IMG/VR virus record: IMGVR_UViG_3300020442_000006
Location: 64,001 to 128,000 of that record
DNA length: 64,000 nt
Direction: 5' to 3' (one strand)
Source of the DNA: a virus
The translations under genes and the position numbers were made by a program. Numbering within the stretch: position 1 is the first letter of the stretch; every line of letters begins with the position of its first letter. Below, piece after piece: positions 26,223 to 63,268 of the stretch. Below the pieces are notes generated by a model. It was given only the letters and a program-made list of their open reading frames with translations, ran no database searches and was not told where the DNA came from.

Positions 26223-26295
26223 AGCCATTTATCGGATTTGAACCGATGACCTCCGCTTTACAAAAGCGATGCACTATCCGCTGTGCTAAAATGGC
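26223..26295 (-). tRNA. trnT: tRNA-Thr(UGU); CCA not encoded
   Basis: Cloverleaf: GCCATTT/AAATGGC acceptor, GCAC/GTGC D-stem, TCGCT-TTTGTAA-AGCGG anticodon arm, ATCGG-TTCAAAT-CCGAT T-arm. Confidence 0.95.
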
Positions 26296-50869: not shown

Positions 50870-50954
50870 CGGAAAAGGTGGGATTCGAACCCACGGACGC
50901 TCTCACGTCGTCGGTTTTCAAGACCGATGCCATCAACCACTCGACCACTTTTCC
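50870..50954 (-). tRNA. trnS: tRNA-Ser(UGA) with long variable arm; CCA not encoded
   Basis: GGAAAAG/CTTTTCC acceptor, TCGGT-CTTGAAA-ACCGA anticodon arm, GTGGG-TTCGAAT-CCCAC T-arm, G discriminator. Confidence 0.95.
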
Positions 50955-56534: not shown

Positions 56535-56634
56535 GAGTGCGGGGAACACTGAATTAAATATTCCTGCCTTACCCTCCAAGGCAGGTATGAGAGACTGTTA
56601 TTTAATGTCGCTGTTTAGTCTCGGTGAGGCGACG
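56535..56634 (-). ncRNA. Structured psbA 5' leader (PhotoRC-II-like motif)
   Basis: Interleaved pairings GTCGC/GCGAC and GAGACT/AGTCTC plus 8-bp hairpin CCTGCCTT/AAGGCAGG; family name recalled, not searched. Confidence 0.6.
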
Positions 56635-56675
56635 AAGTATGAAGTGTTTACGTTTCGTAACATTCAACAGTATAT

Positions 56676-59062: not shown

Positions 59063-59135
59063 CGGGTCAGGCAGGATTCGAACCTGCGACCGACTGCTTA
59101 GAAGGCAGTTGCACTATCCACTGTGCTACTGACCC
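59063..59135 (-). tRNA. trnR: tRNA-Arg(UCU); CCA not encoded
   Basis: GGGTCAG/CTGACCC acceptor, ACTGC-CTTCTAA-GCAGT anticodon arm, GCAGG-TTCGAAT-CCTGC T-arm. Confidence 0.95.
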
Positions 59136-60006: not shown

Positions 60007-60189
60007 TTAAGATAGATCATCAGGTACAACTTCTTCGGGTGCACCTATCATATCAAACTTTTTGACTCCGTGGTCAAATTTGAGGATACGCTCAATATGT
60101 CCTTTAACTTCCCAAGGAAATTTGGTCTCCGCTTCCACGAAGACCTCACCAACCTCAGGAATGTTTACCTTCTGTCTCCAAAGTTTCAT
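60007..60189 (-). CDS. Hypothetical protein (60 aa)
   Basis: ORF track; ATGA coupling to talC. Confidence 0.6.
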   Translation of the reverse strand: MKLWRQKVNIPEVGEVFVEAETKFPWEVKGHIERILKFDHGVKKFDMIGAPEEVVPDDLS

Positions 60190-60854
60190 TCGTCTATGTG
60201 CAGTTCCTCTTGAAGTTTTGCCCAGTCGTTTTCAAACCTCTCAAGACCATTGTCTGTGAGGATATGTTTGTACATTTTATTGAAGACTTCGTATGGCATA
60301 GTCACAATGTCTGCCCCTGCATCAAAGCAACGTGCGACGTGGTGCACTTCGCGTACAGATGCAGCAAGGATCTCTGTCTCTACATCGTGCATACGATATA
60401 CTCTAGAGATTGCTTGGACTAATGAAATACCTGAGAAAGAATTGTCGTTCAGTCTGCCAACAAAAGGAGACATCATAGATGCTCCTGCCTTTGCAGCGAG
60501 GATTGCTTGTGCGACTGAAAAGATTAACGTTACGTTTGTACTGATACCATCTGCTGATAGATCACTACAAGCAATCAAACCTTCACGTGTACAGGGTAGT
60601 TTGATTGTGACGTTGGGTGCGATACTATAGTATTCGTTTGCTGCTTCAAGCATTTCTTCAGCAGTATCACCCATAACCTCTGCTGAAATTGAAGCATCCC
60701 AAGAGAACAGATCACTGATTTCCTGTATAACATCTCTTGGATTTCTACCTGCCTTCAACATAAGAGAAGGGTTAGTAGTAACACCATCGATTAGAGAAGT
60801 CTCCATCGCGTGTTGGATAAGTTCGGGGTCCGAACAATCGAGAAAGATTTTCAT
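60186..60854 (-). CDS. talC: Transaldolase TalC
   Basis: IFLD, GVTTNPSL, VTIKLP (Schiff-base Lys), TNVTLIFS, SPFVGR, ILAASVR. Confidence 0.95.
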   Translation of the reverse strand: MKIFLDCSDPELIQHAMETSLIDGVTTNPSLMLKAGRNPRDVIQEISDLFSWDASISAEVMGDTAEEMLEAANEYYSIAPNVTIKLPCTREGLIACSDLSADGISTNVTLIFSVAQAILAAKAGASMMSPFVGRLNDNSFSGISLVQAISRVYRMHDVETEILAASVREVHHVARCFDAGADIVTMPYEVFNKMYKHILTDNGLERFENDWAKLQEELHIDE

Positions 60855-60895: not shown

Positions 60896-60921
60896 AAAAA
60901 AAACACCCTGTGAAGGGTGTT
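60896..60921 (-). terminator. Intrinsic terminator after the YRG peptide gene
   Basis: AACACCCT-tcac-AGGGTGTT plus T-run. Confidence 0.85.
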
Positions 60922-60945
60922 CGTTTCACGAAGTTATATCTAAGA

Positions 60946-61089
60946 TTAACTCTTAGATGCGAACTTACGCTCAACCTTGATGCCTCTGTACATCATTTCG
61001 TGGTTACGATTTGATTGTGCTTCGGCGAGTACCTTTGCTTTGTACTCTTTAGCGTTGTACTTAACGCCTCTGTAAGTAATTAGTTCCAT
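60946..61089 (-). CDS. DUF4278-like basic peptide with two YRG motifs (47 aa)
   Basis: Manual translation MELITYRGVKYNAKEYKAKVLAEAQSNRNHEMMYRGIKVERKFASKS; AGGAG SD at 61101-61097. Confidence 0.85.
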   Translation of the reverse strand: MELITYRGVKYNAKEYKAKVLAEAQSNRNHEMMYRGIKVERKFASKS

Positions 61090-61123
61090 TGAAATACTCC
61101 TAAAGTAGTTGGATGTTTTAAGT

Positions 61124-61327
61124 CCGTTCCTTTAGTCGTTTGCGTCCCACGGACATTCAGGAGTTGCCTCTTGAATGACTTGAACCAACTCGATCTTCTC
61201 CCCAGGGGAGAGTTGTTCGTGCCCCTGTACGTTTTGGATAAACCTCAACGCATCGTGACACTGAATATCGGTGTACATTAACAGCAACAAGTGCATTAAC
61301 ATAGTTGTTCAAGCATAGGGATGAACG
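61124..61327 (-). ncRNA. Glutamine-II (Downstream-peptide) riboswitch-like aptamer 2 with about 170-nt insertion (Yfr6-like arrangement)
   Basis: 5' CGTTCATCCC (61327-61318) and 3' GGGACGCAAACGACTAAAGGAACGG (61148-61124). Confidence 0.7.
61132..61302 (-). CDS. 56-aa peptide nested in aptamer 2
   Basis: Manual translation MLMHLLLLMYTDIQCHDALRFIQNVQGHEQLSPGEKIELVQVIQEATPECPWDAND. Confidence 0.7.
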   Translation of the reverse strand: MLMHLLLLMYTDIQCHDALRFIQNVQGHEQLSPGEKIELVQVIQEATPECPWDAND

Positions 61328-61329
61328 CT

Positions 61330-61370
61330 CCGTTCCGCGACTTACTTGCGTCCTCCAAGGAGGATGAACG
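61330..61370 (-). ncRNA. Compact glutamine-II riboswitch-like aptamer 1
   Basis: CGTTC-A-TCCTCC-TT-GGAGGA-CGCAAGTAAGTCGCG-GAACG-G; late-promoter core CTAAATA at 61403-61397. Confidence 0.65.
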
Positions 61371-61445
61371 TATGGATATGATAACATACCCTGTATTATT
61401 TAGCAACATCTTTCTTTTTGTAACGTTTTCTATTCCTACGGATAC

Positions 61446-62075
61446 CTATACCTTTATCTCGTTTAAGATCCCGCTTAAGTTGCCTGAGGAACTTAAGATG
61501 TAGTTTAAGTTGATTATGCATCGATAGTCATTGTACTGCGGATTACTGCTCGCGTGAAAGTTATGACCATCGAAGATAATAAACCTACCTTGACGTGGTT
61601 CGATCTTAGTTTTCAGCGTCAGTTTCTTACGTGATCCATCGTACATTTCATTGAAGAAGAACGTAGGACCATCTGAATCGTTCACATAATACAGCAACGT
61701 CATATGTGGAAAATCATAATCCACGTGTGGTGTATGGTATAGATGCTTCGATTCTTTCTTAGTTAATAGATTGATTTTGATACGTCTGAACTTTTCAAAG
61801 TCTCCTAGTTCGTCAGCGAAGTTCTCAGAAATATATTTCCACAGTGGTTCCACCACAATATCCCAAGCGTGTTGGGAAGAAATTTCTCCGTGGTTGTTTA
61901 CAACTGTGTGCTGAAACTGGGGATCCTCCCCCGACAATTCATCGGGGATAGAATCATTGAACTTAGGGTCATACCCAGTTGTTTCAGTAATCATATACCA
62001 AGGCCAATACGGACTATTCAATAGTCTTGCCTTGATGGGTTCCGACACAGTGGTCGGGACTTCACCAATAAACAT
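61446..62075 (-). CDS. 2OG-Fe(II) oxygenase
   Basis: PHVD, LYYVNDSDGPT, FHASS and RCIINLN motifs. Confidence 0.85.
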   Translation of the reverse strand: MFIGEVPTTVSEPIKARLLNSPYWPWYMITETTGYDPKFNDSIPDELSGEDPQFQHTVVNNHGEISSQHAWDIVVEPLWKYISENFADELGDFEKFRRIKINLLTKKESKHLYHTPHVDYDFPHMTLLYYVNDSDGPTFFFNEMYDGSRKKLTLKTKIEPRQGRFIIFDGHNFHASSNPQYNDYRCIINLNYILSSSGNLSGILNEIKV

Positions 62076-62077
62076 AG

Positions 62078-63268
62078 TTAAAGTTTGAAACCAGAGAACG
62101 TATCTTTTTTAATGTCTTGTTTGATTGCTCCTACAACATAGGATTCAATCTCTGTTTCCTGTGGTGCATTCTGTTGACCTTTAGAGTTCAACCAATGATT
62201 TGTCCAAGGAAGTGGATTGTTTCTAGCAGGAATATCGTAGATAGGATCGATGCCGATCGCTTTCATTCTACGGTTAGCAGTCCACTCAACATATTGTCCG
62301 AGAAGTTTAGCATTGAGTCCGATCATTGAACCATCTTTGAACAGATACTCTGCCCAGTCCTTCTCTTCTTCTACACAACGTTGGAACATTTCAACAACGT
62401 TGTCTTTTTCCTCTTTGATGATGTCGATCATATCAGGATCGTCACCGTCTGCCCACTTGTTAAGAATGTTCTGAGTGATTACGAGGTGCTGTGATTCATC
62501 ACGTGCAATAAGTGAAATGATCTTAGCAGATCCTTCCATCTTTTTAAGTTCACCGAATCCAAAAGAACAAGCGAATGAAACATAGAAGCGAATACCCTCA
62601 AGGATATTCACATTCATAACTGCTCTATAGAGTCTACGCTTAAGTTCTTTCTTCTCCCAGTAAGCAGAAGGAGAATCTTTCCAGTCCTTCTTCCACCAGT
62701 TACCTTGTCCCCATTCCTGTGCGTAGTTGATGAACTCATCATACGCTTCAGTCACAGACTTAGCACGTGCAATAATTCTTTCGTCGTCAAGAATCGTATC
62801 GAAAACCTCTTCTGGATTTGAGTAAACGTTCTTGATGATGTATGTGTAAGAGCGACTATGGATCATCTCCATAAACTCCCACGCAATCATCGCAGACTCA
62901 AGTTCAGGTAGTGAGCAATATGGAATGAATGCCATCCCAGGACCACGACCTTGTACAGAGTCAAGGAGGATCTGGTACCGTAGATTGCTCGTAAAGATGT
63001 GCTTTTGTGCATCAGTTAATTCTTGAAAGTCAGAACGATCCTTTTGGAGAGACACCTCTTCGGGTCTCCAGAAGAATCCTAATTGTGAATTGGTTAGTCT
63101 ATCAAAGACAGGATACTTAAAACCATCGTATCTCTGGACACCAAGTGGTTGTCCAAAGAACATAGGTTGTTTCTTAGTATCGTGTTGTGTTTGATTAAAT
63201 ACTGTAATTTTATCGATGCCTGTTTTTTTATTGTCTTCGGATGAGACCTTAAACTTTGCAACTGTCAC
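62078..63268 (-). CDS. nrdB: Class Ia ribonucleotide reductase beta subunit
   Basis: FWRPEEV, LLDSVQ, EMIHSRSY, LEGIRFY, RDESQH, APQE.E..SY. Confidence 0.97.
   Translation of the reverse strand: MTVAKFKVSSEDNKKTGIDKITVFNQTQHDTKKQPMFFGQPLGVQRYDGFKYPVFDRLTNSQLGFFWRPEEVSLQKDRSDFQELTDAQKHIFTSNLRYQILLDSVQGRGPGMAFIPYCSLPELESAMIAWEFMEMIHSRSYTYIIKNVYSNPEEVFDTILDDERIIARAKSVTEAYDEFINYAQEWGQGNWWKKDWKDSPSAYWEKKELKRRLYRAVMNVNILEGIRFYVSFACSFGFGELKKMEGSAKIISLIARDESQHLVITQNILNKWADGDDPDMIDIIKEEKDNVVEMFQRCVEEEKDWAEYLFKDGSMIGLNAKLLGQYVEWTANRRMKAIGIDPIYDIPARNNPLPWTNHWLNSKGQQNAPQETEIESYVVGAIKQDIKKDTFSGFKL

Follow-up and report, generated by a model that had tools for sequence, protein, structure and literature searches.

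A predicted glutamine-riboswitch leader in a T4-like cyanophage, with two interlocked junctions and a gene enclosed in one helix

Riboswitch aptamers are regarded as compact non-coding domains, and a leader in which an aptamer-like stem closes over a gene raises the question of what such an RNA folds into and how sensing and translation could share it. The question is posed by a 64,000-nucleotide (nt) stretch of a T4-like cyanophage (cyanomyovirus), positions 64,001 to 128,000 of the IMG/VR record IMGVR_UViG_3300020442_000006, referred to here as the window. Its minus strand carries a mini-operon consisting of a leader RNA, a nested 56-amino-acid (aa) open reading frame (ORF B) and a downstream 47-aa frame (ORF C). 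A preliminary description had read the leader as two independent tandem aptamers of the glutamine-II type, coupled through a mutually exclusive alternative pairing. All of the elements it listed are present on the minus strand (Table 1), and its assignment to the glutamine-riboswitch class is upheld below; the architecture is a different one. We consider it rather likely that the leader is an interlocked glutamine-I-type sensor with ORF B enclosed, one RNA that would combine the glutamine signal with ORF B translation and switch ORF C ON.

The region matched 429 phage records. The full arrangement was conserved in 248 distinct metagenomic phage elements and was found again in seven isolate genomes from different Kyanoviridae genera. 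Loci were collected through the protein (42 fetched) and through DNA patterns (several hundred).

The AGUCG that follows CGCAAGUA in the first half of the leader is complementary to the CGACU that precedes (G/A)AAGGAACG in the second half. This helix, P3, was paired at 5/5 positions in 222/222 loci having both strands, in eight strand combinations that included double compensatory changes, P3 variants having been sought on purpose when the loci for this count were gathered. The combinations comprised AGUCG/CGACU, AAUCG/CGAUU, AUUCG/CGAAU, AGACU/AGUCU and AAUCU/AGAUU, plus G-U intermediates, with exchanges that included G-C to A-U or U-A, U-A to A-U, and G-C to U-A. The fifth pair of the CGUUC/GAACG helices (strands numbered by half) varied in the crossed register only: 90 loci carried CAACG(1) with CGUUG(2), and nine carried CGUUU(1) with AAACG(2) together with CAACG(1) and CGUUG(2). 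The tandem register would be mismatched in 99/99 of these variant loci.

Covariation resolves the leader into two predicted glutamine-I-type three-way junctions interlocked in cis, much as two repeats would be in a domain-swapped dimer. P1 (CGUUC(1)/GAACG(2)) and P2 (hairpin 1) belong to the outer core, as do both strands of the E-loop, AGUA and (G/A)AAG. A circular permutation of this order gives the inner core, with P1' formed by GAACG(1)-GAG-CGUUC(2) and closed by the GAG triloop, and P2' formed by UCCC...GGGA with the gene inside; the two cores occupy the two ends of the single shared P3. Because of the crossed register and the shared P3, the outer core has the canonical glutamine-I order P1, P2, CG(C/G)AAGUA, P3, (G/A)AAG, P1. 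The GAACG-GAG-CGUUC hairpin, previously proposed as the exclusive alternative to the aptamer folds, is instead the native inner P1', covarying in the 99 loci, with a local free energy of -3.9 kcal/mol.

The remaining helices also vary in a paired manner. For the outer P2, 20 distinct hairpins were seen, with 4-5 Watson-Crick pair types at pairs 3-6 and a hairpin length ranging from 12 to 47 nt. The P2' strands covary across the nested-gene families (UA/CG at pair 1, CG/UA/UG at pair 4), the strand pairs seen being UCCC/GGGA, UCCU/AGGA, CCCC/GGGG, GAUUAUG/CAUAAUC, UCCUCAU/AUGAGGA and UCCUA/UAGGA; when the 3' strands were shuffled among loci, the observed pairing was reached in 27/2000 trials. 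In the window, the interlocked fold had a predicted energy of -75.5 kcal/mol vs -73.1 kcal/mol for the tandem fold. In the six loci with compact hairpins that were folded, the interlocked form was the minimum free energy structure or within 1.3 kcal/mol of it, and it was better than the tandem form by 2.6-4.8 kcal/mol.

The class of the leader was assessed against Rfam. In permissive searches of 631 nt, core 1 of the window scored 30.1 bits (E 1.8e-5) against RF01704 (glutamine-II, Downstream-peptide), below the gathering score of 33, and 28.3 bits against RF01739 (glutamine-I), below the gathering score of 35. Both hairpins were compact in 6/248 elements, five of which have an identical 3' core with a short hairpin replacing the gene (L076, L083, L098, L058 and L082). 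The three of these that were scanned (L076, L083 and L098) reached 38.4-42.9 bits against RF01739, in alignments that span CGUUC(1) to GAACG(2) and assign everything between AGU and ACU to P3. As compact loci with the same 3' core pass the curated thresholds, the split form is homologous to a bona fide glutamine riboswitch, and the sub-threshold score of the window can therefore be ascribed to its 169-nt insert.

Element by element, the outer core follows RF01739. CGUUC(1)/GAACG(2) closes the three-way junction as P1, P2 (61364-61351) comes directly after CGUUCA and is closed before CG(C/G)AAGUA, and P3 is flanked by the AGUA and GAA strands of the E-loop (AAAG in the window, GAAG in most relatives). 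The RF01704 model, with its 33-bit cut-off, describes a P1-PK-P2 pseudoknot (PK) that lacks P3, and the covarying P3 and fully nested register contradict this glutamine-II topology. In the Downstream-peptide search that the preliminary description had proposed, core 1 came near the gathering score and the compact second core of L076 exceeded it (34.0 bits); the window itself stayed below. Judged by the scores of the compact homologues and the covarying helices, the leader belongs to the glutamine-riboswitch class, and by analogy with the known glutamine riboswitches we infer that each junction binds L-glutamine.

ORF B matched phrog_504 (E 5.8e-17), a family joined to phrog_13397 through intermediates. 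The frame was open in every fetched locus holding the whole gene, and its indels were whole codons. The entropies at the three codon positions were 1.05/0.61/1.42, and the proportions of nonsynonymous and synonymous differences (pN and pS) were 0.35 and 0.73; the corresponding rate ratio (dN/dS) was 0.44 in frame vs 0.79 and 1.71 in the other two frames. These signatures mark ORF B as a real coding gene, in keeping with the earlier claim. The AlphaFold model showed a small three-helix protein (predicted local distance difference test score, pLDDT, of 82), and two conserved Cys are present in the sequence. A Foldseek comparison of the model with the PDB gave no match with E <= 0.001.

P2' closes around the complete ORF B, the stop codon, within the GAC UAA already described, lies in P3 and the E-loop strand, and the last five codons form part of the sensor core. 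At this C-terminus, RNA pairing overrides protein sequence: WDAND becomes WGAND where P2' is CCCC/GGGG, and WDAQV where P3 is AGACU/AGUCU. In most relatives the ORF B AUG abuts or joins P2', and its probable Shine-Dalgarno (SD) sequence, GGAG, sits in the P1' triloop. An AUG-CAU extension of P2' was considered as a universal start-codon trap and was rejected for the phrog_504 clade, where pairs 6-7 were formed in only 45-48% of the distinct sequences and the Pro codon is unconstrained at its third base.

The window also contains a mini-ORF, AUG CUU GAA CAA CUA UGU UAA (MLEQLC*), at 61296-61316 on the minus strand, starting 1 nt past UCCC. The UAA of this frame overlaps, as UAAUG, an AUG at the third codon of ORF B, and it is this AUG that lines up with the start normally used in other phages. 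As a conserved feature the mini-ORF was rejected, the nearest relatives (L008-L010) having no ATG there; it may restore coupling in a lineage whose real start drifted from the stem.

Gene-sized inserts are not confined to P2'. Of the 248 full elements, such an insert occupied the second hairpin alone in 182, the first alone in 3 and both hairpins in 57, and it was absent from the other 6. ORF A, which the first hairpin (outer P2) encloses in about a quarter of the loci, is a frame of about 66 aa belonging to phrog_6471 (e.g., L011, L012 and L022-L025, at about 446-680, and about 60 other loci). The N-terminus of the ORF A protein is hydrophobic, and its two Cys are separated by about 35 residues; a Pfam search gave no match, and homology between ORF A and ORF B was rejected (hhalign probability 2%). 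In many ORF A loci the AUG pairs with bases that overlap the frame's own stop, as in UCCUAUG/CAUAGGA, UCUCAUG/CAUGAGA, UCUUAUG/CAUAAGA and UCCAAUG/UAUUGGA, while in the remaining loci the helix is shorter or contains a mismatch. In a permutation test of the outer P2 of ORF A loci, the observed pairing was reached in 3/2000 trials.

A third loop is occupied more rarely. In L035 (3-566) and L036, an ORF of at least 188 aa lies in the P1' loop and ends directly before CGUUC(2), with the C-terminus ...LAEVYQTSHTSIRRWKNSL, which appears helix-turn-helix-like by eye; remnants of 63-98 nt from its 3' end occupy the same position in L116 and L153. A Pfam search of the L035 frame gave no match. It is possibly a mobile gene exploiting the third loop. 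Elsewhere, L085 holds an unrelated 53-aa ORF in P2' that stops at a UAG inside the 3' strand (UCCUA/UAGGA), and in L100 the P2' stem is of wholly different sequence (GAUUAUG/CAUAAUC) and the ORF continues past the usual stop, reaching 92 aa.

Downstream of the sensor, ORF C scored 24.7 bits (E 3.1e-5) against PF14105 (DUF4278), for which the cut-off is 25.3, and matched phrog_5049 with an E of 5e-22. It contains two YRG motifs, and its homologues are called DUF4278 domain-containing in RefSeq. ORF C is thus a predicted DUF4278-like peptide, as the preliminary description had it. At other loci it is replaced by a 55-aa paralogue (phrog_545), likewise with two YRG motifs. The short DUF4278 proteins of picocyanobacteria are without the C-terminal region that IF17 needs for its interaction with glutamine synthetase (PMC6212724). 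In S-SSM5 (L001:1047-1211) and S-SSM4 (L005:1149-1316) an extra small ORF with a TYRG motif lies between the DUF4278 gene and talC; it represents a second YRG peptide, outside the riboswitch-controlled pair.

The alternative helix that has covariation support is located next to the ORF C start. The sequence CU(A/G)AAG, which spans the final two bases of P3 plus the E-loop strand and has the ORF B stop within it, pairs with a CUU(U/C)AG just before the GAG of the ORF C SD (CUAAAG/CUUUAG in the window). At least 5/6 positions of this SD-proximal helix were paired in 209/210 loci. A-U, G-C and G-U exchanges occurred at the stop-codon position, the change between UAA and UGA tracking a U to C change on the opposite strand. 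Since the six bases are common to both, the SD-proximal helix and the P3/E-loop structure are mutually exclusive, and the former is likely the platform of an ON switch. By nearest-neighbour energies, the sensor fold of the window lies about 6 kcal/mol above the SD-proximal-helix state, a gap that fits a switch in which folding of the sensor depends on ligand and tertiary contacts.

The unit is bounded by a late-type promoter box and an intrinsic terminator, as previously noted. In most loci an aligned late box, (C/A)TAAATA, is present about 30 nt upstream, in the form TATAAATA or CTAAATA; that of the window, GCTAAATA, is a 7/8 match to NATAAATA. The latter is the cyanophage late promoter, and overlapping early and late promoters have been described for cyanomyoviruses (PMC2984593). 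A T4-type late promoter has NATAAATA about 6-8 nt upstream of the transcript start. A leader hairpin is found at the same place in nearly all loci, starting 5-10 nt downstream of the late box, with stem sequences that differ by compensatory changes. This is the point from which late transcription would be expected to begin, and the hairpin probably forms the 5' terminus of the late transcript. In many loci a TTGACT-17-TATAAT promoter overlaps the late box (TTGCTA-17-TATCAT in the window).

Taken together, a mechanism can be proposed in which glutamine would stabilise the double junction, so that P3, the E-loop and the outer P1 fold. The folded P3/E-loop would withdraw CU(A/G)AAG from its pairing beside the ORF C SD and turn the DUF4278 peptide ON, and the same ligand-stabilised fold would bury the initiation region of ORF B, which in most relatives has its GGAG in the P1' triloop and its AUG at P2'. 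In the opposite sense, ribosomes engaged in translation of ORF B, or in termination there, would keep the sensor unfolded. As the helix spans the translated ORF, a ribosome on ORF B physically excludes the folded P2', P3 and E-loop, and sensing and translation are therefore expected to compete. The glutamine level and ORF B translation would in this way be integrated on one RNA, possibly reciprocally, and ORF C, as an IF17-like DUF4278 peptide, may act on the host glutamine synthetase.

Several points weigh against this interpretation. The whole-window Rfam scan at gathering thresholds gave no match to a glutamine family, and the window element reaches no Rfam gathering score. Its E-loop is only partly canonical, since the strand opposite AGUA is AAAG and departs from the consensus GAAG. 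With its shorter joiners (CGCAAA and CG) and lack of an E-loop, the inner core may not bind ligand. The AUG/CAU extension is paired in only about half of the distinct phrog_504-clade sequences. In the window subclade the ATG lies 16-22 nt from P2', with GGAG too distant to act as an SD; start-codon burial is therefore not universal and is weaker in the window. Ribosomes terminating inside the SD-proximal helix could unmask ORF C without glutamine, which would change the direction of coupling. Finally, the covariation counts are raw locus counts in which kinship is ignored.

Somewhat less than an even chance is given to a full reciprocal toggle, which we put forward tentatively: two glutamine junctions coupled via the shared P3, such that high glutamine would expose the ORF C SD and bury the nested gene, and at low glutamine the ribosomes on the nested gene would act as an anti-ligand. 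If true, this would be the first natural riboswitch with an aptamer helix enclosing a protein-coding gene, and a phage nitrogen-status switch between two small effectors.

The most serious rival accepts the sensor as real and takes the nested genes to fill insertion-tolerant loops without regulatory coupling, with ORF B no more than the operon's first gene and the sensor folding on untranslated copies or behind the last ribosome. That the loops accept other cargo (from 12 to 47 nt in hairpin 1, and the P1'-loop ORF of at least 188 aa in L035/36 and what remains of it in L116/153), that the six both-compact elements exist, that the ATG has drifted from the stem in the window subclade and that the AUG-CAU extension of P2' is not kept in the phrog_504 clade would all be expected if the genes were passengers. 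Such a reading does not explain why two unrelated gene families fit two different loops equally precisely, in 242/248 distinct elements, nor why the gene in most loci has its start codon 0-3 nt from the 5' strand and ends in or at the 3' strand. It also has to accommodate the GGAG serving ORF B, which sits in the P1' triloop in most loci, the surrender of the protein C-terminus to RNA pairing, and the unavoidable mutual exclusion of a translating ribosome and an ORF-spanning helix. We regard it as unlikely.

Far less probable is the model of two independent tandem glutamine-II aptamers coupled by GAACG(1)-GAG-CGUUC(2) as an exclusive alternative, with which the preliminary description began. 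Each half does resemble RF01704, as the core 1 and L076 scores indicate, the SD-proximal hairpin carrying GAACG in its loop resembles the glutamine-II P2, and in the window, where each of the four strands reads CGUUC or GAACG, a tandem register could form. Nevertheless, selection maintains the interlocked and not the tandem register in the 99 variant loci, the P3 between the halves covaries and no single tandem unit holds both of its strands, AGUA occurs in half 1 only and GAA in half 2 only, and the tandem fold is 2.4-4.8 kcal/mol worse.

That the RNA-like strings are kept merely by coding and translation signals, with no ligand-sensing structure forming, can practically be set aside: the 3' half does overlap the last ORF B codons and the window element does score below the Rfam thresholds, but CGUUCAUCC, AGUCG and other non-coding strands are just as invariant, the synonymous positions of AAC GAC hardly vary and, where they do, the distant partner changes with them, amino acids are altered to keep pairing, and the compact homologues exceed the Rfam thresholds.

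The coordinates of the interlocked sensor and its two genes are collected in Table 1.

Table 1. Features of the leader and mini-operon in the window.
Feature	Position	Strand	Remarks
Late-promoter-like box CTAAATA	61403-61397	minus	Sequence and promoter scan
Sigma70-like promoter TTGCTA-17-TATCAT	61406-61378	minus	Its -35 overlaps the CTAAATA box; promoter scan
Leader hairpin GGGUAUG-UUAU-CAUAUCC	61374-61391	minus	3 nt upstream of the sensor
Outer P1, 5' strand CGUUC(1)	61370-61366	minus	Partner GAACG(2), 61129-61125
Outer P2 hairpin UCCUCC-UU-GGAGGA	61364-61351	minus	Covariation
Joiner J2/3 CGCAAGUA, includes AGUA strand of E-loop	61343-61350	minus	Fits RF01739 consensus CGGAAGUA and the crystallised glutamine-I sequence (PMC5393176)
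Shared P3, 5' strand AGUCG	61338-61342	minus	Partner CGACU, 61138-61134
Inner P1' hairpin GAACG(1)-GAG-CGUUC(2)	61323-61335	minus	GAACG(1) 61335-61331, GAG 61330-61328, CGUUC(2) 61327-61323
GGAG within P1'	61331-61328	minus	Likely SD of the nested gene in most relatives
Inner P2', 5' strand UCCC	61321-61318	minus	Partner GGGA, 61148-61145, across 169 nt
Second CGUUCAUCCC	61327-61318	minus	Counterpart GGGACGCAAACGACUAAAGGAACGG at 61148-61124
ORF B, 56-aa nested gene (phrog_504)	61302-61132	minus	Last codons W-D-A-N-D-stop double as sensor 3' core
ORF B stop UAA	61134-61132	minus	Context ...GAC UAA AGGAACGG; GAC UAA AGG
Inner P2', 3' strand GGGA	61145-61148	minus	Falls inside Trp-Asp codons of ORF B
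Shared P3, 3' strand CGACU	61134-61138	minus	Final base is first base of ORF B stop codon
E-loop strand AAAG, then outer P1 3' strand GAACG(2)	61125-61133	minus	GAAG in UGA-stop relatives
Alternative SD-proximal helix CUAAAG (61135-61130)/CUUUAG (61105-61100)	61100-61135	minus	6 nt common to P3 and E-loop strand
ORF C SD AGGAG	61101-61097	minus	GGAG 6-9 nt before ATG conserved in all loci
ORF C, 47-aa basic peptide, two YRG motifs	61089-60946	minus	Predicted DUF4278-like, phrog_5049
Intrinsic terminator, 9-bp stem then T run	60922-60901	minus	Terminator prediction

The predicted glutamine-sensor mini-operon sits on the minus strand between genes for a 2-oxoglutarate (2OG)-Fe(II) oxygenase (61446-62075) and transaldolase, talC (60186-60854), with nrdB at 62078-63268 on the same strand. 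This neighbourhood is kept in the Kyanoviridae isolates S-SSM5, P-TIM40, ACG-2014b, S-SSM4, P-RSM1 and ACG-2014d, which represent several genera; S-SKS1 has the same element adjoining a thymidylate synthase gene. A search for the phage-type core in species-representative genomes returned five matches (L171-L175), all on phage-like contigs within metagenome-assembled genomes (MAGs), and no genuine host copy. The MAGs are labelled Synechococcus, Nonlabens, Verrucomicrobiales, Euryarchaeota and, in one case, an uncultured bacterium, and the contigs are likely phage DNA mis-binned into the MAGs or co-assembled with the genome. Elsewhere in the window, a PhotoRC-II RNA (RF01717) was identified at 56550-56646 on the minus strand (62.5 bits, above gathering), together with three tRNA genes, all on the minus strand (59063-59135, 50870-50954 and 26223-26295).

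Among known RNAs, the closest comparison is with glutamine-I (RF01739), exemplified by the Synechocystis gifB leader (PMC6212724) and by the 61-nt aptamer that has been crystallised (Ren et al. 2015, with its sequence given in PMC5393176). The glutamine-I fold, a three-way junction that includes an E-loop (PMC6698751), undergoes a rearrangement of P3 upon ligand binding (PMC5393176). Both types of glutamine riboswitch are ON switches upstream of DUF4278 genes (PMC6212724), and ligand binding has been proposed to compete with a structure that occludes the ribosome binding site (RBS) (PMC6698751). The outer core matches glutamine-I element for element (CGUUC-A-P2-CG(C/G)AAGUA-P3...P3-(G/A)AAG-GAACG), with the E-loop beside P3, a location in the 5' untranslated region of a DUF4278 gene and an RBS-proximal alternative pairing consistent with an ON switch. 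It differs in that the P3 'loop' is here an entire second, circularly permuted core sharing P3, in that one or two hairpins enclose whole genes of 153-234 nt, and in being phage-encoded, the window element being missed at Rfam gathering thresholds.

With glutamine-II (RF01704; PMC6698751) the leader shares the ligand-site nucleotides CGUUCA, GGACGC and GGAACG, the tie, seen in marine picocyanobacteria, to short YRG/DUF4278 peptides, and a hairpin near the start site whose loop carries GAACG. A two-piece glutamine-II aptamer assembles upon glutamine addition (PMC6698751), showing that assembly of an aptamer from separated strands is possible. Unlike glutamine-II, which is without P3, the helices here are nested, require no pseudoknot and include a covarying P3.

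The tandem glnA RNAs (Weinberg et al. 2010; PMC2864571) and the glnA hit in cyanophage S-CREM1 (99 nt, 44 bits; PMC9964418, Table 4) likewise present two aptamer repeats side by side. In the accessible papers, Ames & Breaker 2011 excepted, glnA RNAs are described only as tandem or single, and an interlocked register, a shared P3 and nested genes are unmentioned. At 99 nt, the S-CREM1 hit has the length expected of the interlocked double element in its compact form and not that of a single aptamer, which measures 53-61 nt. The cyanophage glnA annotations probably correspond to this compact double form.

Glutamine riboswitches, their tandem occurrence, the DUF4278 link and the cyanophage glnA hits are thus already published (PMC2864571, PMC6212724, PMC9964418). 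Our search of the accessible literature, with Ames & Breaker 2011 outside its scope, returned no description of genes nested in an aptamer or of an interlocked double core. As standard covariance-model scans miss the element at curated thresholds, glutamine riboswitches are expected to be under-annotated in phage genomes. A sensor stem selected to close over a translated gene, with two cores sharing a helix, would constitute a new coupling of metabolite sensing, cooperativity and translation. The element adjoins auxiliary metabolic genes (talC, nrd), which makes the reading of host nitrogen status by cyanophages testable, and through it the roles of the DUF4278 peptides and the nested small proteins in infection become testable as well.

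Coding genes in the loops of a structured RNA also occur in the group I introns of T4-like phages, where ORFs for homing endonucleases lie in peripheral loops of a ribozyme. The leader resembles these introns in that a gene occupies a loop and that interference between translation and folding is possible; it differs from them in that the RNA is a predicted ligand sensor and the gene small, conserved and non-mobile, with its start and stop built into the helix.

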